DNA from: a virus
Taxonomy: Duplodnaviria > Heunggongvirae > Uroviricota > Caudoviricetes
Virus record (IMG/VR): IMGVR_UViG_2681813233_000007
DNA length: 64,000 nt
Direction: 5' to 3' (one strand)
Shown here: in pieces, positions 3,070-54,700 of the stretch
Layout: each line of letters opens with the position of its first letter
Position numbering within the stretch: position 1 is the first letter of the stretch
Made by a program: the position numbers and the translations under genes
Notes under the pieces: generated by a model
Seen by the model: only the letters and a program-made list of their open reading frames with translations
What the model was told of the DNA's origin: nothing
Database searches by the model: none

Positions 3070-4577
3070 TGGCTGGAGGGCGCAAGATTAAATGCGTCAC
3101 CAGCGATCCACGCTGGCGCGATATGGTAATCAAATACCGCTACAACTTTACCCAGGCTGTTGTCGATATTTTTGGGATGTTCCCCTCCCACCAGCAGCAG
3201 CAGATCATTCAGTCCGTGCAGGAAACGGGGAGTAGGACGACCGTCACGTCCGGACACGGAACGGGGAAGTCGTCCCTTACCGCGATGTTGCTGTTGATTT
3301 TCATGATCCTGTTCCCCGATGCCCGTGTCATCATTGTTGCTAACAAGATAGGCCAGGTAAAAACAGGCGTATTCAAATACGTTAAACAGTATTGGGCGAA
3401 TGCAGTTAAGCGTCATGGGTGGTTGCAGACCTATTTTGTCCTCTCTGACACCATGTTTTATGAGCGCTCCCGTAAGGGGATTTGGGAAGTTCTCTGCAAA
3501 GGTTATCGACTCGGCAACGAAGAAGCGCTGGCGGGGGAACACGCGGCACATTTGCTTCTAATTCTGGATGAAGCATCTGGTATATCTGATAAGGCGATCG
3601 GCGTAATGACCGGTGCTCTTACTGAAGAAGATAACCGGATGTTGATGCTATCCCAGCCAACAAGGCCAAGTGGTTATTTTTACGATTCGCACCATTCTCA
3701 AGCAAAAACCCCAGACAACCCGAAAGGGATCTGGACAGCAATTGTTCTTAACTCGGAAGAATCACCGTTCGTCACACCACAATTCATCAAGCAGAAGCTT
3801 CTGGAATATGGGGGGCGCGATTCTATTGAGTACATGGTCAAGGTGCTTGGTCAGTTCCCACGAGAAATTAACGGCTATTTGCTTGGTCGTGATGAATGCG
3901 ATCGCGCTGCTCGCCGCAAGGTGCTGTTGGAGAAAAACTGGGGATGGGTGGCAACGGCTGACGTTGGTAATGGGCGAGATAAGTCGGTCCTCAACATCTG
4001 CAAGGTATCTGGTCACAGGGATAAGCGGCGCGTTGTTAACTTTAAGGTAATGGAGATGCCTGGCACTATGGACCCATTGGCCTTTGCTGACTTCATATAT
4101 AACGAATGTACGCCGGAAAAATACCCGAATATAACAATCGCGGTTGATGCTGATGGTTTTGGTTCTGATACGTGTGCGCAGTTGGTGCGTCGTGGTGCGA
4201 ACCCGGTACGTATTCGGTGGGGAAAACCCATGTTTGCGAACAAAGACAGGGAGCGATTTGTTAATCAGCGTGCCTACGCAAATATTATGGCGCGAGATGC
4301 CATAAAGTCAGGGCGTATGCGGATAGACAGTGACCCTAAAACGGCAGAGCAAGCGTCAAAAATCCCCTTTTTACTGAATGAAGAAGGGAAAATGGCGATG
4401 ATGCGCAAAGAGCACATGCGGCAAAAGCTAAACATCAAATCGCCTGACCGATGGGATACCTACTGCTTCACTATGCTGGTGGACTATGTGCCTGCTAATG
4501 AAGATATTGGTGCCGAAATGGCAACTTTCCGAGATCAGGTTCTGGCGGATATCGAAATGCCGGATCTGGATATATAA
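3069..4577 (+). CDS. pacB: terminase large subunit PacB-like
   Basis: Walker A SGHGTGKS, Walker B LLLILDEA, C-terminal nuclease-like region; coupled to pacA. Confidence 0.9.
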   Translation: MAGGRKIKCVTSDPRWRDMVIKYRYNFTQAVVDIFGMFPSHQQQQIIQSVQETGSRTTVTSGHGTGKSSLTAMLLLIFMILFPDARVIIVANKIGQVKTGVFKYVKQYWANAVKRHGWLQTYFVLSDTMFYERSRKGIWEVLCKGYRLGNEEALAGEHAAHLLLILDEASGISDKAIGVMTGALTEEDNRMLMLSQPTRPSGYFYDSHHSQAKTPDNPKGIWTAIVLNSEESPFVTPQFIKQKLLEYGGRDSIEYMVKVLGQFPREINGYLLGRDECDRAARRKVLLEKNWGWVATADVGNGRDKSVLNICKVSGHRDKRRVVNFKVMEMPGTMDPLAFADFIYNECTPEKYPNITIAVDADGFGSDTCAQLVRRGANPVRIRWGKPMFANKDRERFVNQRAYANIMARDAIKSGRMRIDSDPKTAEQASKIPFLLNEEGKMAMMRKEHMRQKLNIKSPDRWDTYCFTMLVDYVPANEDIGAEMATFRDQVLADIEMPDLDI

Positions 4578-5642: not shown

Positions 5643-5852
5643 TATTCCTACTCGATTTAGTTTTCTAACATAAAATTACTATGACAAATTTATGTCGAAT
5701 AACAGAGTGAGTAAAGGATCGAACTGTGATTTTTTGTCATCAATTTTAGAAAACCAACCGTAGAAACCACACTTCGCAAATTAAAGACCATGAAGGCAAC
5801 GTGTTACTGGTCATCATCAATCTATGATGGATTTAAAAAAATCGGCATTTTA

Positions 5853-5884
5853 TAACTTTAAATAATTGGCATTATTTAAAGTTA
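5853..5884. other. rox-type recombination target site (14-bp inverted repeats, 4-bp spacer)
   Basis: TAACTTTAAATAAT-TGGC-ATTATTTAAAGTTA; perfect 14-bp inverted repeats; reverse complement equals the rox sequence as I recall it; lies about 150 bp upstream of the recombinase gene. Confidence 0.85.
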
Positions 5885-6036
5885 GGCTATAATCATGTGT
5901 AGATGAACAGTGTTGACATCACTGAAAATACGTGCCTCGAATCAAAGGCTTGTATTTTGAAAATTAACTTATAGCTACCCTGTCATTTTTATATTTTTCG
6001 CGTAGCGTCATCTGTATATAGAGGTGTAATAGTTTC

Positions 6037-7065
6037 ATGAGTGAATTAATTATCTCTGGCAGTTCCGGTGGTTTTCTGCGCAACATTGGCAAAGAGTACC
6101 AGGAAGCCGCAGAAAACTTTATGCGGTTCATGAATGACCAGGGGGCTTATGCGCCGAATACTCTGCGCGACCTCCGGTTGGTGTTTCATTCCTGGGCGCG
6201 CTGGTGTCACGCTCGCCAGCTTGCCTGGTTTCCGATCTCACCAGAAATGGCCCGCGAGTATTTTCTTCAGCTGCATGATGCCGATCTGGCTTCGACCACC
6301 ATTGATAAGCACTACGCCATGCTGAACATGCTGCTTTCGCATTGTGGCCTTCCGCCACTTTCGGATGATAAAAGTGTTTCTCTGGCTATGCGGCGCATCC
6401 GGCGCGAAGCGGCAACTGAAAAAGGCGAACGAACAGGCCAGGCTATACCGCTTCGGTGGGACGATCTGAAACTGCTCGACGTCCTGTTGTCCAGGTCAGA
6501 ACGGCTGGTGGACCTGCGCAACCTGGCTTTTCTCTTTGTTGCATACAATACGCTGATGCGTATGTCGGAAATATCGCGTATTCGTGTAGGTGATCTGGAC
6601 CAAACAGGTGACACTGTCACGCTACATATTTCACACACGAAGACAATAACGACCGCCGCCGGGCTTGATAAGGTGCTTTCCCGTCGCACTACCGCTGTGC
6701 TGAATGACTGGCTGGATGTTTCCGGGCTTCGCGAGCATCCTGACGCTGTGCTGTTCCCGCCGATACACCGTAGCAATAAGGCCAGGATCACGATAACGCC
6801 CCTTACTGCACCTGCAATGGAGAAAATATTCAGCGACGCCTGGGTGTTGCTGAATAAAAGAGATGCTACGCCAAACAAAGGAAGATACCGGACGTGGACC
6901 GGGCATAGTGCACGCGTCGGGGCCGCTATTGATATGGCTGAAAAGCAGGTGTCTATGGTGGAGATCATGCAGGAAGGAACCTGGAAGAAACCGGAAACAC
7001 TTATGCGGTATCTTCGCCGTGGCGGCGTGTCTGTGGGGGCTAATAGCCGCCTGATGGATTTGTAA
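6037..7065 (+). CDS. dre: Cre-family tyrosine recombinase (Dre-like)
   Basis: 342 aa; alignable to Cre along its length (e.g. NLAFL..AYNTL.R..EI.RIRV.D, W.GHSARVGAA.DMA, EIMQ.G.W); adjacent rox site. Confidence 0.9.
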   Translation: MSELIISGSSGGFLRNIGKEYQEAAENFMRFMNDQGAYAPNTLRDLRLVFHSWARWCHARQLAWFPISPEMAREYFLQLHDADLASTTIDKHYAMLNMLLSHCGLPPLSDDKSVSLAMRRIRREAATEKGERTGQAIPLRWDDLKLLDVLLSRSERLVDLRNLAFLFVAYNTLMRMSEISRIRVGDLDQTGDTVTLHISHTKTITTAAGLDKVLSRRTTAVLNDWLDVSGLREHPDAVLFPPIHRSNKARITITPLTAPAMEKIFSDAWVLLNKRDATPNKGRYRTWTGHSARVGAAIDMAEKQVSMVEIMQEGTWKKPETLMRYLRRGGVSVGANSRLMDL

Positions 7066-28758: not shown

Positions 28759-29088
28759 ATGGGCTATAGCAGACTCGACGATAGGTACATTGAAGACGAT
28801 ATTTTTCGTGCGCTGTTTCACCAGGAAATGATTAAGCGGGTATCGGAGTATCACTCTGATAATTTCCAGTACACGATAAAGATTGATGAAGTATATCGTT
28901 CAGACCTTGCAGCCTACAGGGCGTATGGCAATGCAGATTTGCGCTGGGTATTCCGGGTGCTGGTGGGCCATGAGTCAGAAATGGAAGAAATGCCCGCAGG
29001 GACCACGTTAACTCTTCCTGATGTGGCATGGCTGAGGAACAAGATCCGTGATTACGCAAGCGCGAAACCGGAGATAGAAAATGCCTGA
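28759..29088 (+). CDS. hypothetical protein
   Basis: ORF track; 8-nt overlap with next gene. Confidence 0.5.
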   Translation: MGYSRLDDRYIEDDIFRALFHQEMIKRVSEYHSDNFQYTIKIDEVYRSDLAAYRAYGNADLRWVFRVLVGHESEMEEMPAGTTLTLPDVAWLRNKIRDYASAKPEIENA

Positions 29089-30274
29089 TTTCCTGAAAAA
29101 CCAGGACGGGCGCTATATCACTGACGGCCTGTCCTCTAAGGACTTCACGCGTTTATTCGACCTTATCAGGAAAGAACAAACCCGTAAGCGCCGACAAGCT
29201 CACCGGACGCTGACGCCAGGTAGACTGAGGAACAAATCCGCCGAAGATATTCTCAAGTTAGGGAAGAAAAAAGGCGGCACGTTCTTCACGCGAGACGACC
29301 TGAAAGGTTTCGAAAAGCTACGGAGTAAAACGCGCGAAAAATATGACAGCAAGACGGCTGGCATCACATACGCCCAGCTGGTGGCATCCAGCCAGGCAAT
29401 CGATATTAAGCGTGCAAATAACGCCGTGGATGACGGATCTGGTATCAAAAGAGCTACACCCGTATCTCTTCGCCACAATGTGATTAATATCCGCGTAGAA
29501 GCATCGGATATATCCGTCCACCAGCACCATATCGTCCGGATACGCTTTGAAGAATGGGATCAGATGGTTGATGACATCGCAGAAGACGATAAATCAGCTC
29601 TCAAAATCACTAAATCACTGTGCGCCGGGCGAGTGTCTTTCGATTGTGACTGTGGTCGTCATCAATACTGGTATCGTTACATCGCCACTGCGGGTAACTT
29701 TGCCCTGGCACCGCCAAAAGAATACGCCTATCCAAAAGTTCGCAACCCGAAGCTGCAAGGCGTCGCCTGTAAACACGTGATCCACTCAATGACGCGGTTA
29801 CAGTCCGCCAGTTGGCAAATGAGTATTGCTCGTGCGCTACAAAAGGCTGCAACGCAAATTGCATTTGGTGACGATCGCCGCCGTACAACTAAACACTTCT
29901 CAAAAGAAGACGAGAAGGAGTTTAATCGCAATCGTAGCAGTAAAACGAACGTTGAAGCCGCCAAACGCGAATGGAGGCTCTATCAGAAGCGCCAGGCAGC
30001 TTTAAGTACAAAACTGGCAAAGGACAACGGCAAGATCGACAAACTACGTGACCAATTGACCAAGGCCAGAAAGTTGTCAGATGCACAGAAAAAACGGGCG
30101 GCAGCAAAAGAAGCGGCCTTGCAACGTGAGAAACAGAAAAACAAGGAGCTTCAGCAACGCCTTGCCGATCAGTTCGCACTGAAGAAGCAGGCGTTCATTG
30201 ATGCGCTTGTCATGGCTGGAACACCACCAGCACAAGCTGAAAAAATGTTCATGGAGTATGTAAAAAAAGCATAA
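29081..30274 (+). CDS. SWIM zinc-finger protein with basic coiled-coil C-terminus
   Basis: CxC...CxH pattern SFDCDCGRHQYWYRY...ACKHVIH. Confidence 0.55.
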   Translation: MPDFLKNQDGRYITDGLSSKDFTRLFDLIRKEQTRKRRQAHRTLTPGRLRNKSAEDILKLGKKKGGTFFTRDDLKGFEKLRSKTREKYDSKTAGITYAQLVASSQAIDIKRANNAVDDGSGIKRATPVSLRHNVINIRVEASDISVHQHHIVRIRFEEWDQMVDDIAEDDKSALKITKSLCAGRVSFDCDCGRHQYWYRYIATAGNFALAPPKEYAYPKVRNPKLQGVACKHVIHSMTRLQSASWQMSIARALQKAATQIAFGDDRRRTTKHFSKEDEKEFNRNRSSKTNVEAAKREWRLYQKRQAALSTKLAKDNGKIDKLRDQLTKARKLSDAQKKRAAAKEAALQREKQKNKELQQRLADQFALKKQAFIDALVMAGTPPAQAEKMFMEYVKKA

Positions 30275-30307
30275 ACCACACATAGCCTAGTAGTTTATGC
30301 TGGGCTT

Positions 30308-31036
30308 TCATTTTTTTGAAAGATCAACTCCAGTATTATCAAACAAACTGGAAATATCAGACACCAATTTATTAAAATGCTTGTCATCATTATAGAATGA
30401 TGTGCTTTTTATAGCGACTATAAAATCACATAAATCTTGCGGAGATTCAATGCTAACCCCCTTATTTTTATATAGTTCAATAATACTGCCAACATCAGTA
30501 TGCAATAGTTTTATCGCGCCACAAATTTCTCGCTGTTTCGTAACCAAGTCATTAAGTTTATTTTCATTTTCATCTAAGATTTGTTTTGAATATTTAGCGT
30601 CATTGGTTGCTTGATTTAACTTTGTTTTCTTTCTTTGCAATTCTATTCTTTTATCATAATCAGCAACTTCATCTAAATATCTTATTTCAGTGTATAATTT
30701 ACTTGTTAGCTTAGATATCGTCAGTGTGAGAATAGGAGCTAATACAGATGCAAATACTCCATAAATAAATGGGATTACAACGTGACAAACCCACGGGGGT
30801 ACAATCCAATTATCAAAGAACGGTACATTACCACCAACAAAAACAATAGATAATGTATATAGGATGTCGTCCTTTGACTTTAATATAATTAAAATATCCT
30901 TCCAGTTAAGGATTAGAAAAGAAATGACAACATATGCAAAAACCTTGTTAAATATTTTATCTTTTATTATTTCAGAAAATGATTTTAGTTCTGTTTCATT
31001 TATAGACGAATTATCTTTAACTTTTTCTGACATCAT
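30308..31036 (-). CDS. membrane protein of unknown function (AT-rich; Abi/exclusion candidate)
   Basis: Two N-terminal TM helices then Lys/Asn-rich coiled-coil; strongly AT-rich codons. Confidence 0.55.
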   Translation of the reverse strand: MMSEKVKDNSSINETELKSFSEIIKDKIFNKVFAYVVISFLILNWKDILIILKSKDDILYTLSIVFVGGNVPFFDNWIVPPWVCHVVIPFIYGVFASVLAPILTLTISKLTSKLYTEIRYLDEVADYDKRIELQRKKTKLNQATNDAKYSKQILDENENKLNDLVTKQREICGAIKLLHTDVGSIIELYKNKGVSIESPQDLCDFIVAIKSTSFYNDDKHFNKLVSDISSLFDNTGVDLSKK

Positions 31037-35437: not shown

Positions 35438-36343
35438 ATGAGATCAGTCGCTTTCAAAAATATCTTCATCTATCGTCTTTCACGCGAAGTTAGCTGGGAT
35501 ACTGCAGAAGTAAATGCAGCCCTTAGCAAGTTTGTGTTTACCCCATGCGGTTCTCAGGATATGGCTAAAGCTGGTTGGACCCCCGTTCTTGGCGACAACC
35601 TCACCCATGAATACCAGGGTTTTCTTCTGATACAGCATAAACGAGAGGAAAAAATCCTACCCTCTCAAGTGCTCAAAGAAGAGTTACAGAAAAAAATCCT
35701 GACACTTGAAGAAGAGCAAGACAGAAAGCTGAAGAAGACTGAAAAAGATTCGCTGAAGGATGAAGTGCTTCACTCTCTTCTTCCTCGTGCTTTCACGAGA
35801 AAATCAGTCGCTAAAATCCTGATAGACCGAAGCAATCATCTGGTTTTTGTCGAGGCCAGCAGTGCTAAAAAAGCAGAGGATCAGCTGGCTTTGTTACGGA
35901 AATCGCTTGGCAGCTTGCCCGTTGTCCCCTTCTCTCCGAAAGACCCATTAGAACTGACCATCACTGGCTGGATTAAAAATGGCTTCCCGAACGGTTTCCG
36001 TGCCGGTGAGGAAGCGACCTTAAAAGCATTGCTTGATGATGGCGGCGCGGTCCGCTGCAAAAAAGTGGACCTGCTATCCGACGAGATCATGAGTCATATA
36101 GAAGCTGGTAAGGTTGCAACCACAGTTGCGGTTAACTGGCAAGACCGTGCATTTTTCAGACTGAATGACGATATGAGTATCAAGGCTTTGTCGTTCAGCG
36201 ACGAATTGTACGACCAGAACGACGATATTGATCGAGAGGATGTTGCGCAACGATTTGACGCTGACTTTATCCTATTTACTGCTGAATTATCAGCGATGTT
36301 CACCTCGCTAGTGGAGGCCGTTGGTGGTGAAGCAGAACGTTAA
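35438..36343 (+). CDS. hrdC: RdgC-family recombination-associated protein (HrdC)
   Basis: Alignable with E. coli RdgC end to end (YRLSRE...[49 protein letters not shown]). Confidence 0.85.
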
Positions 36344-38615
36344 CCTTCGATATGGTTCAGTTTGCAGTGGAATTGAAGCCGCGAGCATTGCCTGGGAACC
36401 GTTGGGTATGCGTCCGGCGTGGTTTGCTGAAATTGAGCCTTTTCCATCTGCCGTTCTTGCGCACCGCTGGCCTCATGTCGCCAACCTTGGCGATATGACA
36501 AAACTTGCCAAAAAAGTCCTGGCTGGGGAAATCGAATCCCCTGATGTGCTCGTCGGGGGAACACCTTGTCAGGCATTCAGTATCGCGGGATTACGTGGTG
36601 GGCTTGATGATGAGCGTGGCGCGCTAACTTTAAAGTATGTGGAGCTTGCAAATGCAATTGACGACAAACGGGCTGAGTCATTTCTCAAACCAGCCGTTAT
36701 CGTCTGGGAAAATGTCCCAGGAGTCTTGTCATCGGCAGATAACGCCTTCGGATGTTTCCTTGCCGGATTGGCTGGAGAAGATGCGCCATTTGAACCAGGT
36801 GATCGACCTGAATCAGGAAAAAGTAACACGTTCTGGCGGTGGGATGGCAAAACCGGTTGCCATGCTCCAAAGTGGCCGCAGTGTGGTTGTATTTATGGAC
36901 CGCAGCGAAAAGTGGCCTGGAGAATCCTTGATGCCCAATACTTCGGAGTGGCACAACGACGCCGACGCGTGTTTGTTGTCGCAAGTGCTCGAACAGACCT
37001 CGATCCCGCAACGGTACTTTTTGAGTTCGAAGGCGTGCGCCGGAATATTGCGCCGAGCCGAAAAAAGAAGGAAATCGCTTCCGCCATTATTGCAAATGGC
37101 GCTGCAATCAGTGGCGAAAGCCTAAATCCATGCCTACACGCTGACATGCCACCCGGTATGAAATCGACGAAAGCCGTAAACGCTTTCAGGATGGCAGCAT
37201 TTGGGGAATATATTGACGATGAAACCGCATCGACAGTAAAGGCAAGAGATTTTAAAGATGCCACTGACCTTGCCGTTTTTAGCAGCACAGGAGCAGGTTT
37301 TTGGTCAGAAGGGCATGGTACATTGCGGGCACGTGAGCAAGAAAGCCATGAGCATCTTGTTACATTGGCTTTTCCTGAGCGTATGAGCGGTACACAACAT
37401 GCTGCAACTAAGAATACTTCACCATCTCTAATGGCTAAAAATCCAACAGCTGTTTGCTATGAAGTAAGAAACGCAGAAGTAGCTGTCCGCCGTCTTACCC
37501 CTGTCGAATGTGAAAGGCTGCAAGGTTTTCCTGAGGGGCATACGTTGATCCCGACGGAAAAGCGTAAAAAAGTTTCTTCAGATGAACTGGCATACCTTCG
37601 CAATCACTATCCAGATTTAAGCGAAGAAGAGGCCGCGATGCTTGCAGCTGACGGACCGCGTTACAAAGCGATCGGCAACAGCATGGCAGTTCCTGTTATG
37701 CAATGGATAGGGTGTCGCATTCTTGCGACCGTAGCGGATAAACAGCAAAAAACAATAAATACCATTACCTACACAAGAAAACTCCGGACTCCGGATGAAT
37801 ATGAACGCCCAATATTCAAATGGGTAGGCGGTAAATTCTCAGAGTTGCCTACAGTGCTTGAGCATCTACCACACGGCAAGCGGTTAATAGAACCATTCGT
37901 TGGTGGCGGTTCCGTATTTACGAATGCAGGATTTCGCCACAACCTGCTTAATGATATTAACGGTGACCTGATTAACTTCTATCAGACATTGCAGCGAGAG
38001 GGACATTCGCTCGTCACGCTGGCATATAGTTTTTTCAAAAATTACAACAACGCTGACGCTTACCTCGAAGTGCGTGAGGCATTTAACAGAGGAAAGTATG
38101 ACCAACTACATCATGCTGCTGCCTTTTTGTACCTTAATCGGCACTGTTTTAATGGCGTAACGCGGTACAACCAAAATGGCGAGTTCAACGTAGGGTATGG
38201 CAAATACAAAGCGCCCTACTTCCCACATGCAGAGATGGAGGCATTTTTGGCTGATGACGTACTCAAAAACACTTCCTTTGTATCAGGTGACTTTGCTAGC
38301 GTCATTGAGGCGGCTGGTGAAGACGATGTGATTTTTTGTGATCCGCCGTATGAACCGCTTCCGGATACAGAGGGATTTACCAGCTATTCAGGAAATAGCT
38401 TCCGTTTCGACGAACAGAAACGGCTTGTATCACTGTTGGTGGATGCCCACCAGCGCGGCGCTAAGGTAGTGATAACAAATAGTGGTGCTCCAAACATCCG
38501 TGAACTATATGAAGGAAACGGGTTTAAAGTACATCATATGGCAGCCAGACGGTCGGTTTCCTGCAAGGCGTCAACACGTGTAGTTGCTAACGATATAATT
38601 GCAATAATGAAGTAA
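36321..38615 (+). CDS. dmt: bifunctional DNA methyltransferase: C5-cytosine MTase fused to Dam-like N6-adenine MTase
   Basis: N-terminal [12 protein letters not shown] and WENVPGV; C-terminal FVGGGSVF and DPPY; 764 aa as in P1 Dmt. Confidence 0.9.
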
Positions 38616-38663: not shown

Positions 38664-40325
38664 TTAACCTAACTTCGCCCAGGTATCACGCAGCCCAACG
38701 GTGCGGTTAAATACCGGTTTTTCCGCCGTAGAATGGCGGCTGTCGAGGCAGAAATAACCTTCACGCTCAAACTGGAATGCTTTACCCGCTACCGCTTCTT
38801 TCAGCGACGGTTCAGCAAAGCCCTGTTTGATCACCAGCGATTCCGGGTTAATCACCGACAGGAAATCATCCGCAGCACCTGGGTTCGGCACGTTGAACAG
38901 ACGATCGTACAGGCGGATTTCAACCGGCAGCGCATGTGCCGCGCTCACCCAGTGAATAACGCCTTTCACTTTACGACCATCTGCCGGATCTTTGCTTAAG
39001 GTGTCGGCGTCATAAGTACAGAAGATGGTGGTGATATTGCCTTCGGCATCTTTCTCCACGCGTTCAGCCTTAATGACGTAAGCATTACGCAGACGCACTT
39101 CTTTACCCAGCACCAGACGTTTGTACTGCTTGTTAGCTTCTTCGCGGAAATCGGCGCGGTCGATCCAAATCTCACCGCTAAACGGCACCTGACGGCTACC
39201 CATTTCCGGTTTGTTTGGATGGTTCGGCATGGTGACCATTTCGCCTTCGCCCTGGTAGTTTTCGATAACCAGTTTCACCGGATCGATAACCGCCATTGCG
39301 CGCGGGGCATTTTCGTTGAGATCTTCACGGATGCAGGATTCCAGCGACGCCATCTCAATGGTGTTGTCCTGCTTGGTCACGCCGATGCGTTTGCAGAACT
39401 CACGAATAGAAGCCGCAGTGTAACCACGACGACGCAGACCGGAAATGGTCGGCATACGCGGGTCATCCCAGCCTTCAACGTGCTTGTCGGTCACCAGCAG
39501 GTTCAGCTTACGCTTGGACATCACGGTGTATTCCAGATTCAGGCGCGAGAATTCGTACTGGCGCGGGTGAACAGGAATGGTGATGTTGTCCAGTACCCAG
39601 TCATACAGACGACGGTTGTCCTGGAACTCAAGCGTACACAGAGAGTGCGTAATACCTTCCAGCGCATCGCTGATGCAGTGGGTGAAGTCGTACATCGGGT
39701 AGATGCACCACTTGTTGCCAGTCTGGTGGTGTTCAGCAAACTTAATACGGTACAGCACCGGGTCGCGCATCACGATAAACGGCGAAGCCATGTCGATTTT
39801 CGCACGCAGGCAGGCTTTACCTTCTTCAAAACCACCGGCACGCATTTTTTCGAACAGCGCCAGGTTCTCTTCAACGCTGCGGTCGCGGTACGGGCTGTTT
39901 TTACCCGGCTGCGTCAGGGTGCCGCGGTATTCGCGGATCTGTTCCGGCGTCAGTTCGTCAACATACGCCAGGCCTTTGTTGATCAGTTCAACAGCATAGG
40001 CATGGAGTTTGTCAAAATAATCGGAGGAGTAACGGATGTTGCCAGACCAGTGAAAACCTAACCATTCAACGTCGTTTTTAATCGACTCAACGTACTCGAT
40101 ATCTTCTTTTACCGGGTTAGTGTCGTCGAAACGCAGGTTGCACTGGCCTTTATAGTCCTGGGCGATCCCGAAGTTCAGGCAGATAGATTTCGCATGACCA
40201 ATATGCAGATAGCCATTCGGTTCCGGCGGGAAACGGGTATGTACTGTGGTGTGCTTACCACTGGCCAGATCTTCATCGATGATCTGACGAATAAAGTTAG
40301 TCGGGCGGGCTTCTGCCTCACTCAT
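38664..40325 (-). CDS. glnS: glutaminyl-tRNA synthetase
   Basis: 553 aa; HIGH motif (LHIGHAKS), KMSKS-type VMSKRK; N-terminus [24 protein letters not shown] recognised as enterobacterial GlnS. Confidence 0.95.
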
Positions 40326-40593
40326 TGTGGATTCCTCAAAGCGTAAACAACGTATAACAGCGTATGATCTTATAAGCCGAATAGGCTGACAACCACTAGT
40401 TGATTAGAAATTGCTTTCTATCGTTATTTCAATAATGAGCTTTTTCATGAAGCCCACTTTTGCGCATAAGTAAATTAATGATAAATGGCACACAATTGGA
40501 ACCAAAAAGGATGTAAAGGTGCACCAAATTAGTGGTGTATTGGTACACCTTTGGTTCAAGACTTTTTAAGTTCTAAAACCAACCTGAAAGACT

Positions 40594-40881
40594 TTATTTT
40601 GCTTCCTCAGACTCCGCTAACATGAGGATAGCATGGCGGATCATATTCAATTTGCTGCGATTATGCTTTTTACTTAACGCATCAAGTACTTGGTACTCGT
40701 ATTCATTGAAACCAACACGAATAGATTTAAAATCACGTGGAGCGTCCTTATCGAGCACTTTGTTGTCTTCTGGTTGCTCACCCGGCACCAAATCAGCCTT
40801 ACTGGCAAAATCCTCAATTCGGCGTTCAAGATCGGGGTCTTTTACTTCGGGGGCTTTTACCGATTTACGAGGCTTAATCAC
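40594..40881 (-). CDS. small RHH centromere-binding protein (ParG-like)
   Basis: C-terminal ribbon-helix-helix; 8-nt overlap with upstream ParA gene. Confidence 0.55.
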   Translation of the reverse strand: MIKPRKSVKAPEVKDPDLERRIEDFASKADLVPGEQPEDNKVLDKDAPRDFKSIRVGFNEYEYQVLDALSKKHNRSKLNMIRHAILMLAESEEAK

Positions 40882-41545
40882 TTAATAACTCCTTAACCAA
40901 CATCTGGATTTCACCTTTAGCTTTCCCGTTGTCCATCTCAACAACGCCCTTCCCTTCAGCCATGCAATCGCGGTAAACCTTACGATCACGAATGATGGTT
41001 TTCAGCAACTTCAGTTGCGGATATTCAGCTAGGTACTCTTTGGCCTCATTGGTTTCATTCACAACCGGATTGGATGGGGCCATTGTTAAGACTGCGAACG
41101 CCTTAATGCTAGGATTAGGCATCAGGTCCAAAGCCTCTTCAAACACTTCAACAAAGTGTGCCAGCGTGTCTAAATCTGGTTGAGATGGTCTGAATGGGAC
41201 CAACACAATATCTGCAGCGGTTATGCCTGTACGCATCTCTTTGCTATCGCGCCCGGCTGTATCAACAACTACAAATTCATAACGCTTATCCAGATCGAGA
41301 AGTGTTTCTCGAATATTACCAAACTTCTGGACACAATGAATTACAGGAGAAACCTCTGCCGTGTTACGGTCAGCTGCCCAGCGGGCAGCTGTTCCTTGCT
41401 TGTCTGCATCTAGTAACACTACATCCTTATTTGCGCGGGCAAGCTCCGCACAGATGTTTACGCTTGTGGTTGATTTTCCACAGCCACCTTTTTGGCTGAC
41501 TACCAATATAATCATATCCGTTCCTCGGTGTGATTTTGGTATCAA
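40874..41545 (-). CDS. ParA-family partition ATPase (small type Ib, ParF-like)
   Basis: Deviant Walker A SQKGGCGKST; 223 aa. Confidence 0.8.
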   Translation of the reverse strand: MIPKSHRGTDMIILVVSQKGGCGKSTTSVNICAELARANKDVVLLDADKQGTAARWAADRNTAEVSPVIHCVQKFGNIRETLLDLDKRYEFVVVDTAGRDSKEMRTGITAADIVLVPFRPSQPDLDTLAHFVEVFEEALDLMPNPSIKAFAVLTMAPSNPVVNETNEAKEYLAEYPQLKLLKTIIRDRKVYRDCMAEGKGVVEMDNGKAKGEIQMLVKELLSD

Positions 41546-41757
41546 AACGGTTCCAGATAAGAGCCTTTTTGATGCGGGACAGGCTCTATAATGGAGTCAT
41601 GAATGTTTGGCAAAGTATAACATCAATCAGACCAAATACACCTTATATTGCATCCTATTTAACACGAAATCAGCCCTAAATTGGAACCAGATACAAAATT
41701 GCACCATAACAGCACCTAACCGGTGCCAGATTAACACTAATTAGACACCATTAAGGC

Positions 41758-41783
41758 ATAAAAAAGGCTGCAATTTGCAGCCT
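41758..41783 (-). terminator. hairpin downstream of parR
   Basis: AGGCTGCAA/TTGCAGCCT with T-run on minus strand. Confidence 0.4.
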
Positions 41784-41802
41784 TAAACCAGCACATCTTC
41801 TG

Positions 41803-42147
41803 TCAATCAGGTAGAGAGTCAGCCAGATTGCGCGCCGACGCGCTTTTGGCAACAACTTGCTCCTTCACTGGCTCAATGGAGGCAGGGCGCTCCTCAACCG
41901 CAGCTGGTAGTTCCAGGAAGGATGCCAGCATTTTTCGGATCAGCTCCGGGTTATTGTCTTCGGTCAGCAGGGAAGCCAGTAATCCTGGAAGCCTGCTATC
42001 GACTTCTCCCAGCGCAAGCCCTGCCAACAATGCGGTTCTTGCCATATCGCTATGTTTTTTTATCTTCTCGCTCGCCGCCTTTTCATTGGCATAAGCCTCT
42101 GGGCGAAGATAAATCATCACTTTCTTACGTTCCTGAGACATGGACAT
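41803..42147 (-). CDS. parR: ParR-like centromere-binding protein
   Basis: Small protein directly downstream of parM; AALLAGLALGE region resembles ParR/StbB. Confidence 0.6.
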   Translation of the reverse strand: MSMSQERKKVMIYLRPEAYANEKAASEKIKKHSDMARTALLAGLALGEVDSRLPGLLASLLTEDNNPELIRKMLASFLELPAAVEERPASIEPVKEQVVAKSASARNLADSLPD

Positions 42148-42154
42148 TACCTCG

Positions 42155-43135
42155 TTAACCGATTGCTTTCAGGCCATGAACAAGAGCAAGTTGCGGGTCA
42201 TCCGCCACGAAGAAACGGTCATCACGAATATTAACTTGCTCGCGAATTGCATCTGCCACCAGCGGTGCGCCACCACCGATCACCATGACATGCGTATATC
42301 CTTTAAAGTCGCCAATCACATCAAGAACTCGGGTACGCAGACGGTCAATGCTTGCGGCAATGGCCTTTTTCACATCACCAATCGCTGATGGGTCATTGAT
42401 ATTGTCGTTCAGATAATCTTCATCGTGGCGGTTAATAATGAGCTGATCAACATTGTAATTTGACGTTTCGGTATTGGCCCTTGCAAGTGCTTGCCTTACT
42501 TCCCTGGTGACCAGTGATACACCAAGATTCGAATCGCCAAAAACACGGGAAACTGCCGTCATTTGCCCAGCGACCATTGAAACATCAAGGGTAGTTCCAC
42601 CCAAATCGACGATAAGAACAGAATGGACAGGGTTCAGATTGTCGCACAGGCCAATTCCTGCCGGAATAGACTCCGGTCGTACCGTAACTTTCTTAATCGT
42701 GAACACATTGCCTTTATTCAGCGTGACGGGGCGCATAAGGCTGGCTTTCTTGCGCTCGATGTTATCGAGATTGTATTGCGCGTCGTCGTCGTAAAACTCC
42801 GCCAGAGGCAGCGTGACCACAATTTCTACTTCCTGCGGCTCAATACCGCTTGTCAGCAGGGCATGGTGAACAGCCAGGACGTTAAGCGGGCTGTATTGCC
42901 ATTCCACGTTATTCGTCGGCAGAACATCTGGCGAGATCAAATCATACGAATACTTCTCGTCGTCAATGACATAGTTAAACGGCTTGCCAGCACCAAATGT
43001 TGCTGACCATCCGCGCTTAAAGCTGTTAGGACTGATGTGAGTGCGAGTTTCCCCGTCGTGCTCCCACAGCATTTTGATATTGGTTGAACCATCATCGATA
43101 AAAATGCGCATCTTCTTGCTCCACTTCTGAGACAC
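42155..43135 (-). CDS. parM: ParM/StbA actin-like segregation ATPase
   Basis: IFIDDGSTNIKM, HISPNSF, LIVDLGGTTLD, VMVIGGGA motifs; 326 aa. Confidence 0.85.
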   Translation of the reverse strand: MSQKWSKKMRIFIDDGSTNIKMLWEHDGETRTHISPNSFKRGWSATFGAGKPFNYVIDDEKYSYDLISPDVLPTNNVEWQYSPLNVLAVHHALLTSGIEPQEVEIVVTLPLAEFYDDDAQYNLDNIERKKASLMRPVTLNKGNVFTIKKVTVRPESIPAGIGLCDNLNPVHSVLIVDLGGTTLDVSMVAGQMTAVSRVFGDSNLGVSLVTREVRQALARANTETSNYNVDQLIINRHDEDYLNDNINDPSAIGDVKKAIAASIDRLRTRVLDVIGDFKGYTHVMVIGGGAPLVADAIREQVNIRDDRFFVADDPQLALVHGLKAIG

Positions 43136-43137
43136 AT

Positions 43138-43310
43138 TTGAGAATCAAAATGTAATTTTAAAAGAGAAGCACCCAAAAATCCACACCAAACGAGACAAAA
43201 AAGAGCACTTGTTGAGTTTATTTTGAGAATATCTTAATCACCCACTGAATGATGGCCTGATAGTGAGATTTATTTGAGAATGAATTGAGAATACAAAAAT
43301 ATTCTGAAAT
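43138..43310. repeat. parC-like centromere repeats upstream of parM
   Basis: TTGAGAAT at 43138, 43223, 43274, 43285 plus inverted ATTCTGA. Confidence 0.4.
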
Positions 43311-53285: not shown

Positions 53286-53510
53286 TATGTGTGCTGTAGG
53301 GAAAGGTTTACGTTAAATGTGTGCTGCCGGGAAACCCCATTGCTCAAGATGTGTTGTAGAGGGAATGGTAATGGCAACATGTGTGCTGGAGGGGAATTTC
53401 GCATGTAAAGAGCGTCATTTATCCCGCCAGCACACATCTGAAATAAGCAATCCTCTGAAATTCCCTCCACCACACATCCAGACATGAAACTATCCCTTCA
53501 GCACACATTT
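53286..53510. repeat. incA-type iterons (RepA-binding 19-bp repeats) downstream of repA
   Basis: About seven copies of GATGTGTGCTGGAGGGAAA-like repeats in both orientations. Confidence 0.8.
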
Positions 53511-54372
53511 AATCTGTTGGTTTAAGTTTCGGATTCCGAGAGTGAACGATAATGAAGTTTTCACGACCTTGCTTTTCAATGGTGCAATCGAGATAACCTA
53601 TTGTTTTTAACTGGTCTATAGCTTTTTTTATCGTTCTGTTTTGCTCACTTACCGATGACATCAAGGCTAATCTTTCACGTATTCTGGCAAATGAAATAGG
53701 TATTGGACGTGCCGGGAGGCTTTCTATAAAGGTATATATGGCCTGGGCTGCTTCTTTTTTAGGTAAAGCGCGAAGTGCGTGTTGCTGTAGAAGCACCCGA
53801 TAGTCTAGCTGGAAGATTTCCCATAACTTGGAATCAGCCTCCAGTTCAACGACATCTGTTTCAAAGTCAAAATATCCCGTTTTAAGCAGGCCAGTATTGT
53901 AGCTTCCACGAGCACTTTTCCCTCTTTTGAATGAGATGCCTTTGTTGCGTAACCGACCTAAAGAATCGTGGATCGTGTTTCTTAATTTCCCATCAAGTCG
54001 CTTAGATGGAAATCCGCACGCCTTTGCAAATTCTTGAAAAGAAAGGCGAATTGTATTCGATGATAAGCCATACTTGCTAAATGAGTAGATTACCCCAATC
54101 CAGACTTTGAAATCAGTATCCATGTCCAAGCGAGGGCCAGTGATCTTGATGTTGTCGTAGCCTTCTGCTTGAGCTATTTCCAGTTTGGAAAAAACAGATG
54201 ATGCATCTATCTCGTTGTTTTCACCCTGTTTTTTAGTTGGTTTAGGGACGAAAACACCAAGCCGCATAAGTGCGACAGGTTGAACAGTATTGTTCGAATT
54301 AACTGTTAATTCTTTAGCCTTGCTTTCAATGTCAGCATAAAGAATATCAGAGATAAATGACTTATCCATCAA
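53509..54372 (-). CDS. repA: replication initiator RepA (P1 type)
   Basis: 287 aa, near-identical to P1 RepA as recalled (FISDILYADIESKAKELTVNSNNTVQPVALMRLGVFVPKP...). Confidence 0.95.
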   Translation of the reverse strand: MMDKSFISDILYADIESKAKELTVNSNNTVQPVALMRLGVFVPKPTKKQGENNEIDASSVFSKLEIAQAEGYDNIKITGPRLDMDTDFKVWIGVIYSFSKYGLSSNTIRLSFQEFAKACGFPSKRLDGKLRNTIHDSLGRLRNKGISFKRGKSARGSYNTGLLKTGYFDFETDVVELEADSKLWEIFQLDYRVLLQQHALRALPKKEAAQAIYTFIESLPARPIPISFARIRERLALMSSVSEQNRTIKKAIDQLKTIGYLDCTIEKQGRENFIIVHSRNPKLKPTD

Positions 54373-54426
54373 TAAGTTACCGTCATGTTGTGAATAAAGT
54401 TTACGACAGTGGATATCCGGCTTTTT

Positions 54427-54530
54427 TTCCCGTCAGCACACATCCTACATCCCGTCAGCACACATGTAAAACCCTCCAGCACACATATTTTTCCCGTCAG
54501 CACACATCATTTTCCCTCCAGCACACATCT
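54427..54530. repeat. incC iterons (five direct repeats) upstream of repA
   Basis: Five copies of TCCC(G/T)(T/C)CAGCACACAT. Confidence 0.8.
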
Positions 54531-54539
54531 GAATAGTGG

Positions 54540-54700
54540 TTAAAGCCTTATGTGGCGCGGCCTGAAGAGCTACGGGATCTATTTGGTACTATATGGATCT
54601 AATCAGGATCTATATATTGGATCTATCCTGTGGATAAAAAAGAAGAATTACAAAGCTCCACCCAATTTCACACACTACCTATCCTCCAACGAATAAACAG
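54540..54700. other. oriR-like plasmid origin (DnaA box plus GATC repeats)
   Basis: TGTGGATAA DnaA box; four GATCTA heptamers. Confidence 0.6.

Follow-up and report, generated by a model that had tools for sequence, protein, structure and literature searches.

Plasmid maintenance in phage P1 depends on a contiguous region arranged in the order oriR/incC-repA-incA-parA-parB-parS. In plasmid R1, the parC site of the parMRC system comprises two blocks of five 11-bp iterons. Plasmid pB171 carries a double locus in which a type II system (par1 = parMRC) lies beside a type Ib system (par2 = parABC); its two operons are reportedly divergent around a shared parC1, and both halves are said to be active. 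The combination of type II and type Ib systems has been counted in 971 PLSDB plasmids and, in the dual-par plasmid SCP1, one system alone mattered under laboratory conditions (PMC13245405). Among phages, Escherichia phage D6 (MF356679) contains four genes, orf58 to orf61, whose record labels read StbA, StbB, 'possible ParA' and hypothetical, so that orf60 is called ParA only tentatively and orf61 stays unannotated. Par genes of the D6 type have already been listed in the paper on pYU39_89 (PMC6799933).

Here we have examined a 64-kb stretch of phage DNA (the window) in which two separate par operons adjoin on the minus strand (40594-43310) and a P1-type replicon is located 10 kb off (Table 1). 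The best explanation, to which we assign as a whole a probability of about 80%, is that the window belongs to a prophage of the D6 lineage, related to P1 and kept as a low-copy plasmid, and that it combines a P1-type replicon cassette with two independent par operons arranged as a tandem double locus. The arrangement is real but largely described already, as a new instance of a known double-par design, since three of the genes already carry the labels StbA, StbB and possible ParA in the D6 GenBank record and loci of type II plus type Ib are well known. What is new is the replacement of the replicon cassette, the swap of type Ib alleles and the RHH partner, which is unannotated in every record.

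Table 1. Coordinates of the par locus and replicon features in the 64-kb window
Feature	Position	Strand	Basis or details
Candidate second centromere, downstream TTGGTNC(C/A) cluster	40496-40558	.	sites TTGGTTCC/TTGGAACC, TTGGTGCA, TTGGTACA, TTGGTTCA; spacings 11, 21, 22 bp
orf95, putative ParB/ParG-like centromere-binding protein, 95 aa	40594-40881	-	8-nt overlap with parA stop
parA, small deviant-Walker-A ATPase, 213 aa	40874-41515	-	KGGCGKST; without N-terminal HTH
Type Ib operon control region, candidate upstream centromere/operator	41516-41763	-	-10 plus TTGGTRYC-like repeats
Conserved extended -10, TGTTATACT	about 41617-41625	-	alignments
TTGGTRYC-like repeats (examples)	41681-41690, 41701, 41722, 41536, 41549		
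Intrinsic terminator dividing the two par operons	41764-41784	-	AAGGCTGCAAATTGCAGCCTT then T run
parR (stbB), predicted centromere-binding adaptor, 112 aa	41803-42141	-	PF10784, 2jd3
parM (stbA), actin-like segregation ATPase, 318 aa	42155-43111	-	Pfam, structure match, R1 identity
Candidate parC-like centromere/operator region	43128-43292	-	four ATTCTCAA boxes
ATTCTCAA boxes	43285-43292, 43274-43281, 43223-43230, 43138-43145	-	
incA-like array downstream of repA	53287-53513	.	7 RepA iterons (4 one way, 3 the other)
repA, P1-type initiator, 286 aa	53509-54369	-	P1 RepA identity
oriR/incC-like origin	54425-54637	-	iterons, GATC, DnaA box
Five origin iterons	54425-54533	-	21-22 bp spacing
Four GATC sites	54576-54623		
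Consensus DnaA box	54629-54637		TTATCCACA

A P1-type replicon inserted in a D6 backbone

An earlier, sequence-only reading of the window had placed at 53.3-54.7 kb a P1-type repA with incC and incA iterons and no adjacent parAB, and both points held. RepA showed 83.7% amino acid identity to P1 RepA over 283 residues, and the 5 + 7 iterons followed the 19-bp consensus of P1 (GATGTGTGCTGGAGGGAAA), with one origin iteron identical to P1 at 19/19 positions. The overall plan also matched that of P1, from the five iterons of the origin through the GATC cluster and the DnaA box to the control array downstream, although the array contains 7 incA iterons here and 9 in P1. Judged by its sequence, this replicon is truly P1-type (IncY-like). 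The genes flanking repA are the tail tube gene (tub) and pmgB, not parAB, whereas in P1 the cassette lies between gene 23 and upfA. In contrast to P1, the window lacks a type Ia parA, parB and parS, that is, a large HTH-containing ParA and an HTH-containing ParB with parS next to repA.

Roughly a third of the element, which measures ~93 kb, lies beyond the window, and a P1-type parA-parB-parS located there might do the real work. We consider this extremely improbable, because a tblastn search (E ≤ 0.01) with P1 ParA and ParB gave no match either in the window or anywhere in the complete plasmid pE2863-2 (92.9 kb), whose annotation lists no ParB. This plasmid covers most of the window at 95-99.6% identity, with 99.6% across a 43-kb portion containing both the par locus and the replicon.

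Comparison with D6 defined the bounds of the replicon cassette at 53302-54667. To either side of these positions the two sequences share 98-99% identity and, between them, a P1-type incA-repA-incC occupies the slot of an unrelated rep cassette in D6, as a precise 1.37-kb unit between tail genes. The P1-type replicon is a minority variant, present in ~9 of 120 plasmids. Its closest phage RepA is that of Cronobacter phage JK004 (92% amino acid identity); in JK004, as in P1 and P7, P1-type parA-parB genes adjoin repA, a link that is broken in the window. The par region was 98.5% identical to D6 at the nucleotide level, and the two share all four genes, their order and the genomic slot (dmt/glnS ... 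upfC). With respect to its nearest relatives, what was exchanged is the replicon, which entered a D6 backbone already equipped with the double par locus, and not the par genes. The exchange of maintenance modules proposed earlier is directly visible in the replicon cassette, and also in the type Ib module, where one allele has been substituted for another in backbones that are otherwise nearly identical while parMRC remained nearly constant; it does not extend to a swap of par genes against the nearest relatives. The segment exchanged in the allele swap runs from the invariant terminator to where the RHH gene ends.

The type II module

ParM matched the Pfam families StbA_N (PF06406, 1.8e-69) and ParM C-terminal domain (PF21523, 2.7e-55), and the structure of R1 ParM (1mwk) at E 3.7e-111, with 53.9% identity over 318 aa. 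Its motifs DDGSTNIK and DLGGTTLD are intact. The parR start lies 13 nt past the parM stop, and ParR matched Plasmid_stab_B (PF10784, 3.5e-11) as well as the ParR of pB171 (2jd3, E 1.6e-6), to which it is thus detectably homologous.

Directly upstream of parM, a 155-bp segment (43138-43292) contains four boxes of the sequence ATTCTCAA (=TTGAGAAT), all on the same strand. They account for 4 of the 8 copies present in the whole 64-kb window, where ~3.4 copies would be expected by chance. Each box is followed, 11 bp further, by a TCTCA-like half site, and the repeats form 11-bp phased pairs. In the diverged relatives L010 and L011 the boxes are invariant while the spacers vary, and L010 has an additional tandem copy. 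A consensus promoter scan of the par region gave no signal above chance, and the promoters that we propose are conserved -10 elements read from alignments; that of parM (TAAAAT) probably lies between boxes 3 and 4. As in a parC site, direct repeats are found upstream of parM overlapping this putative promoter, and they are predicted to bind ParR.

Taken together, the ParM domains, the downstream ParR and the upstream repeats identify, as far as sequence can tell, a parMRC-type (type II) system, as had been proposed for the ParM/ParR pair and its centromere-like repeats ~10 kb from the replicon. The locus resembles R1 parMRC in its ParM, similar over the full length, in the position of parR directly downstream and in the 11-bp phased repeats placed upstream, around the promoter. 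It differs from R1 in that four strong boxes are distributed in three irregularly spaced clusters, accompanied by weaker half sites.

The type Ib module and its 95-aa partner

The second operon encodes a ParA that matched NCBIfam ParA_partition at 1e-47 (162 bits, under the cut-off of 180) and aligned end to end with TP228 ParF (4dzz, E 1e-18; ParA 3-211 / ParF 4-202). Being short (type Ib ParA proteins have about 200-220 aa), deviant in its Walker A motif and HTH-less, this protein classifies as a type Ib (ParF-like) ParA. For comparison, P1 ParA comprises 398 aa. PGAP labels the protein 'AAA family ATPase' and its partner 'hypothetical protein'.

TTGGTRYC-like sites cluster on both sides of the parA-orf95 operon in the window, and two remote loci (L013 and L019) show the same pattern. 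The upstream flank contains 5 such sites in 248 bp, a number reached by 0.7% of equal-sized stretches. Downstream, 5 sites fall in 114 bp (reached by 0.09%), and the densest 250-bp stretch of the window is found here. Across lineages, hexamers of the TTGGTRYC type are enriched 7-90 fold in the flanks of the operon. The motif was defined partly from relatives because the window's own repeats are degenerate: the strict forms TGGTRC and GGTRCC showed no clear enrichment in the upstream region of the window, and clustering emerged only when a looser motif was combined with an empirical null. The two repeat types were not seen to mix: the parM leader was free of TTGGTRYC sites, and the parA region of ATTCTCAA boxes.

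The partner of ParA comprises a basic N-terminal tail with invariant K3 and R5, a helix at residues 16-29 and a C-terminal RHH domain at ~52-94. At the sequence level, the 95-aa protein had no meaningful match in Pfam (E up to 10), NCBIfam or PDB. A PHROG search gave an Arc-like match (1.8e-4) for residues 53-94, and the family of the protein itself is phrog_9169. An exhaustive profile search, which was required to obtain a deep alignment, retrieved 123 remote cluster representatives; among 82 homologs, 24 matched the NikA-like family and 20 RHH_1. The family profile matched CopG at E 0.13 over the beta-alpha-alpha region. Single E-values of this kind are weak because the domain is only ~43 aa long. 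In the AlphaFold model (pLDDT 90), almost all of the best 50 PDB matches were RHH proteins, and the model superposed on CopG and CopA-SO at 1.2-1.6 Å. A model built from a shallow profile was poor (pLDDT 59), and a match to AcrF10 obtained with a shallow 10-sequence profile proved spurious. The PHROG match, the families of the remote homologs and the predicted model together support an RHH fold, in agreement with the small ParA plus RHH pair that had been described next to parMR.

We also considered whether the partner belongs to the ParG family (PF09274). This was rejected given that there was no Pfam match and that ParG (1p94) appeared among the fold matches of the model only weakly. ParG was absent from the families matched by the 82 homologs, no significant direct match to pB171-type partners was found, and profile-profile comparison with the partner of an IncI1/B/O plasmid ParA revealed no relation. 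By analogy with TP228 ParG, which likewise joins a flexible basic N-terminal part to a C-terminal RHH domain but has no sequence-level relation to the 95-aa protein, the partner may have a ParG-like mode of action while standing outside the ParG family. In each of the five remote homologs examined, the start of the gene falls within the 3′ end of its upstream neighbour, which encodes a ParA of ~211 aa in four cases and a 217-aa product in the fifth.

Conservation of the double locus

The four-gene cluster is kept together in ~120 PLSDB plasmids and is intact in all metagenomic relatives of orf95, and all close homologs of the 95-aa protein lie within this same cluster. The terminator between the operons is invariant in the five relatives aligned (5/5). 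Plasmid pSa1423-90k (88% identical) was left out of the footprinting because its annotation is too fragmented. The dN/dS ratio ranged from 0.02 to 0.11 across the four par genes (0.02-0.04 for parM, ~0.1 for parR, ~0.03 for parA), despite dS values up to saturation. Such ratios indicate strong purifying selection on each of the four.

These values bear on whether one or both modules are decaying, functionless remnants, which the sequence-only reading had named, in combination with a functional P1-type parAB-parS just outside the window, as grounds to abandon its proposal. Generic PGAP labels and a ParA score under the NCBIfam cut-off would fit such decay, but all ORFs are intact, the catalytic motifs KGGCGKST, DDGSTNIK and DLGGTTLD are present, the repeats are conserved, and neither common frameshifts or stops nor dN/dS near 1 were seen. 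Remnants are thus very improbable.

Another explanation is that only one module partitions the plasmid and the second serves some other purpose: for ParMR, this might be to move or position phage DNA during lytic growth, and the ParA/RHH pair might be mainly a transcriptional regulator or an incompatibility or exclusion device directed at related elements. ParM homologs with 48% identity are present in integrating P2-like phages (P88, 520873, Xuanwuvirus), which do not need plasmid partition, so that a ParM in a phage does not prove a role in plasmid partition. In addition, a P1-like 85-kb contig (L014) carries the ParA/RHH pair alone, indicating that one par system can suffice, and the SCP1 case points in the same direction (PMC13245405). 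However, both modules have all three components of a partition system, namely an NTPase, an adaptor and repeats next to them, purifying selection is equally strong on both, they are retained jointly in the ~120 plasmids, and the two halves of the pB171 locus are reported to be active (Ebersbach & Gerdes 2001, cited in PMC4270457). On balance we regard a division of labour of this kind as unlikely, and favour two independent partition operons.

Discussion

A self-contained 1.37-kb cassette, formed by RepA, a five-iteron origin and a downstream array, would provide P1-type iteron replication and copy control, and a tandem double par locus 10 kb away would provide segregation through two independent operons. 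In the first, ParR would bind the ATTCTCAA boxes and cap ParM filaments, which would push sister plasmids apart; since ParR-bound boxes would bracket the promoter, we propose that the parMR operon represses itself. In the second, an RHH dimer would bind the TTGGTRYC-like repeats that flank parA-orf95, and its basic N-terminal tail may stimulate the ATPase activity of ParA, which would lead to even spacing of plasmids along a ParA-coated nucleoid. Each system would contribute its own share to plasmid stability. In the searchable literature, which did not extend to the D6 genome paper (Gilcrease & Casjens 2018), we found no experiments on the par locus.

One of the closest known designs is the pB171 double locus, with which the window shares the juxtaposition of type II and type Ib systems and type Ib repeats apparently on both sides, as in parC1/parC2 (constructs in PMC4270457). 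Unlike pB171, the two operons are in tandem on one strand with a terminator between them, no sharing of repeats between the two systems was seen, and the host replicon is a phage-plasmid and not a virulence plasmid. For a family that every record calls 'hypothetical', we propose a function as type Ib RHH centromere-binding protein.

Phage-plasmids of the P1-like and D6-like kinds occur commonly in E. coli and Salmonella, where some bring resistance genes with them, and their coexistence in one cell is set by replicon and partition specificities. As its iteron consensus is identical to that of P1, we expect incompatibility between the window element and P1 or P7 by way of incA/incC, with no contribution from incB, since it has no partition determinant in common with P1. 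With D6-type elements the replicon should be compatible, and a clash is predicted through both par systems, whose parC and type Ib sites are shared; the consequences for incompatibility would follow from these specificities. A more speculative view, which we put forward tentatively and hold to be doubtful, is that in the D6 lineage replication is physically uncoupled from partition, unlike in P1, so that each maintenance module could be replaced alone. If such swaps were selected to escape incompatibility with co-resident P1-like or D6-like elements, one could view this tandem arrangement of par systems as a modular incompatibility-switching platform, in which the conserved member would ensure stable inheritance as its neighbour diversifies.

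A tandem pair of predicted partition modules on a D6-like plasmid prophage

The region at 40594-43310 of the window shares 98.5% identity with Escherichia phage D6 (MF356679) and 99.9% with pE2863-2 (NZ_AP018804.1), a 92.9-kb plasmid of E. coli, and it matched 123 PLSDB plasmids, nearly all of them non-mobilizable, ∼90 kb long and from Escherichia, Salmonella and Shigella. It is surrounded by P1/D6 virion genes and by methylase and toxin-antitoxin genes. This near-identity, together with the plasmid matches and the neighbouring genes, places the window within a D6-like plasmid prophage, of the group that Pfeifer & Rocha call 'P1g2' (PMC10879196).

Immediately after the par cluster, the window carries a full-length glutaminyl-tRNA synthetase gene, also found in D6 and in the D6-like relative L007 and missing in the relatives L010-L012, where dmt is directly next; among D6-like phage-plasmids this accessory gene is variable, and it has no obvious role. 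The methylase is a single fusion like P1 Dmt, whereas D6 has two genes (orf64 and orf63), and window-D6 homology breaks there, at 36343-37785.

Features of the partition and replication regions and nearby genes (window positions)
Feature	Position	Strand	Description
Methylase	36321-38615	+	764 aa; C5-cytosine and Dam-like domains
Glutaminyl-tRNA synthetase	38664-40325	-	553 aa
orf95	40594-40881	-	95 aa; overlaps parA stop codon
parA	40874-41515	-	213 aa; deviant Walker A KGGCGKST
Terminator, after parR	41764-41784	-	invariant
ParR	41803-42141	-	Plasmid_stab_B 3.5e-11; pB171 ParR 2jd3 1.6e-6
ParM	42155-43111	-	StbA_N 1.8e-69; ParM C-terminal domain 2.7e-55
Iterons downstream of repA	53287-53513		seven, two orientations
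RepA	53509-54369		83.7% identity to P1 and P7 RepA
Origin iterons upstream of repA	54425-54533		five, spacing 21-22 bp

The ParM/ParR pair proposed by the sequence-only reading was borne out by domain and structure matches, including a full-length match of ParM to the R1 ParM structure 1mwk (E = 3.7e-111, 53.9% identity). The TTGAGAAT repeats that it listed with this pair are present and clustered directly upstream of the gene: ATTCTCAA occurs eight times in the 64-kb window (3.4 expected), and four of the eight copies lie on the coding strand inside 155 bp just upstream of parM. These boxes are 18-nt units, each with two TCTCA cores phased by 11 bp, and they are unchanged in the diverged L010 and L011 although the spacers differ; L010 has one additional tandem copy. 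Between boxes 3 and 4, a conserved TTTTAAAAT element is likely the -10 of the parM promoter, so that the boxes would bracket the predicted promoter, as in parC of R1. ParM proteins 48% identical to that of the window occur in the ∼35-kb P2-like phage records P88, 520873, Xuanwuvirus P884B11 and Shae_phiSM, which presumably integrate into the chromosome.

The partner of the small ParA is a predicted RHH protein

The second module had been described as a small ParA plus an RHH protein (type Ib). ParA matched NCBIfam ParA_partition at 1e-47, but its 162 bits fall below the 180-bit cut-off; it aligned end to end with TP228 ParF (4dzz, E = 1e-18). On its own orf95 had no family match, and its close homologs were confined to D6-like elements, in the four-gene cluster seen here. 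An exhaustive profile search recovered 123 remote cluster representatives, nearly all shorter than 160 aa; among 82 aligned homologs, the RHH families matched were NikA-like (24/82) and RHH_1 (20/82), and other matches were to RHH_7, TraY or TacA. The orf95 profile aligned with the beta-alpha-alpha region of CopG (E = 0.13), and residues 53-94 of the protein matched the PHROG 'Arc-like repressor' (1.8e-4). For the AlphaFold model built from a deep alignment (pLDDT 90; helices 16-29, 60-72 and 77-94), RHH proteins made up nearly all of the top 50 PDB matches in Foldseek (CopA-SO, TacA, CopG, Arc, ParG, NikA and ParD among them), with an RMSD of 1.2-1.6 Å over ∼42 residues; the E-values were weak owing to the very small size of the domain. 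Each of the five remote homologs examined overlaps its upstream neighbour at that gene's 3′ end; the neighbour encodes a ParA of ∼211 aa in four cases and a 217-aa product in the fifth. The ParF alignment, the RHH family and fold matches and this conserved overlap support the type Ib assignment; the orf95 product would act like ParG, yet outside the ParG family. A ParA and RHH-partner pair also lies among tail genes, with no adjacent ParMR, at 3372-4276 of the 85-kb metagenomic contig ERR12361423_393 (L014), another P1-like element with Gp23 capsid and sheath-sized genes.

When the parA-orf95 flanks of four lineages were pooled, the hexamers TGGTAC, GGTACC, TGGTGC and TTGGTG and others like them were 7-90 fold enriched, and in L011 the sites form an 11-bp periodic array. 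Allowing at most two mismatches to TTGGTACC, the window has five sites in 248 bp upstream of parA and five in 114 bp downstream of orf95, counts reached by 0.7% and 0.09% of equal-sized windows, respectively; the downstream cluster is the site-densest stretch of the whole 64 kb. Two remote loci, L013 and L019, also have such sites on both sides of the ParA-partner genes. These sites represent a candidate two-sided centromere, resembling the parC1/parC2 layout of pB171 par2 (PMC4270457).

A P1-type replicon replaces the D6 cassette

The presence of a P1-type repA with iterons was confirmed: besides the RepA identity, the iteron consensus is P1's GATGTGTGCTGGAGGGAAA (one copy 19/19 identical to the P1 annotation), and past the iterons of the origin come four GATC sites and a DnaA box that is perfect. 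As the sequence-only reading had noted, virion genes rather than parAB adjoin repA. The replicon is flanked by the tail tube gene and pmgB, whereas the P1 order is gene 23, parS, parB, parA, incA, repA, oriR, upfA. A P1-type parAB just outside the window is unlikely: tblastn found neither P1 ParA nor P1 ParB in the window or in any part of the complete pE2863-2, a plasmid that aligns with most of the window at 95-99.6% identity. That the par modules present are non-functional remnants is made unlikely by low dN/dS (parM 0.02-0.04, parR about 0.1, parA about 0.03, orf95 about 0.07) and by the retention of parM-parR-parA-orf95 together in about 120 plasmids, outside which only single pieces of the cluster match, at 64-76% identity.

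The window and the D6 backbone are 98-99% identical on both sides of an unrelated 1.37-kb stretch (53302-54667; 28901-30342 in D6), with homology ending at 53301 and resuming at 54668. In this slot D6 encodes a different Rep_3-family initiator, which shows no similarity to P1 RepA and has hardly any relatives in phage records. Within PLSDB, the P1-type cassette was found in nine plasmids at ≥99% identity and the D6-type cassette matched 111 (108 at ≥90%), both on the same par background. A minority of D6-like plasmids carry the P1-type replicon as a precise replacement of the D6 cassette. The closest phage RepA (92% aa identity) is that of Cronobacter phage JK004, in which P1-type parA (89%) and parB (70%) follow repA. 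A repA of this family therefore usually stands next to type Ia par, a link that has been lost here. At the DNA level the JK004 locus (5735-6874) is only 74% identical, which indicates long divergence under strong constraint.

The type Ib module is exchanged as an allele

The window and L007 were 96-100% identical everywhere but at about 40600-41800 (5083-6290 in L007), where identity dropped to 64-80%. This stretch is exactly parA-orf95 plus its leader, and synonymous divergence was saturated for parA and orf95 and 0.05-0.07 for parM and parR. The type Ib module has thus been exchanged as an allele; at least three alleles circulate among D6-like elements. The proposed module exchange is thus supported by this swap, by the rep cassette and by the uncoupling of RepA from type Ia par.

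The closest mechanistic model for the locus is the double par locus of pB171, in which divergent operons share a centromere. Here, in contrast, the operons are in tandem with a terminator between them, the host is a phage-plasmid, and no repeats common to both modules were seen in the par region, hence no sign of a pB171-type shared centromere. From sequence we infer the functional roles of both modules, which par protein binds which repeat, and the incompatibility behaviour of the element.

Replicon switching and rep/par gene exchange in P1-like phage-plasmids have been documented in general terms (PMC11165635, PMC9603915, PMC10879196). The D6 GenBank record lists orf58 as StbA, orf59 as StbB and orf60 as 'possible ParA partitioning function', and the partition system of the D6-like plasmid pYU39_89 was given as 'cop, parA, stbB and parM' (PMC6799933). 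Pairing of type II with type Ib (RHH-ParB) systems has also been reported, in 971 PLSDB accessions (PMC13245405), and the double-par arrangement, belonging to a known type, is not in itself new. The analysis makes three modest additions: it identifies the RHH partner of 95 aa together with a candidate centromere on both sides of the operon, it shows that a minority of D6-like plasmids have a P1-type replicon in exact exchange for the D6 cassette, and it shows that the type Ib module is swapped as an allele.
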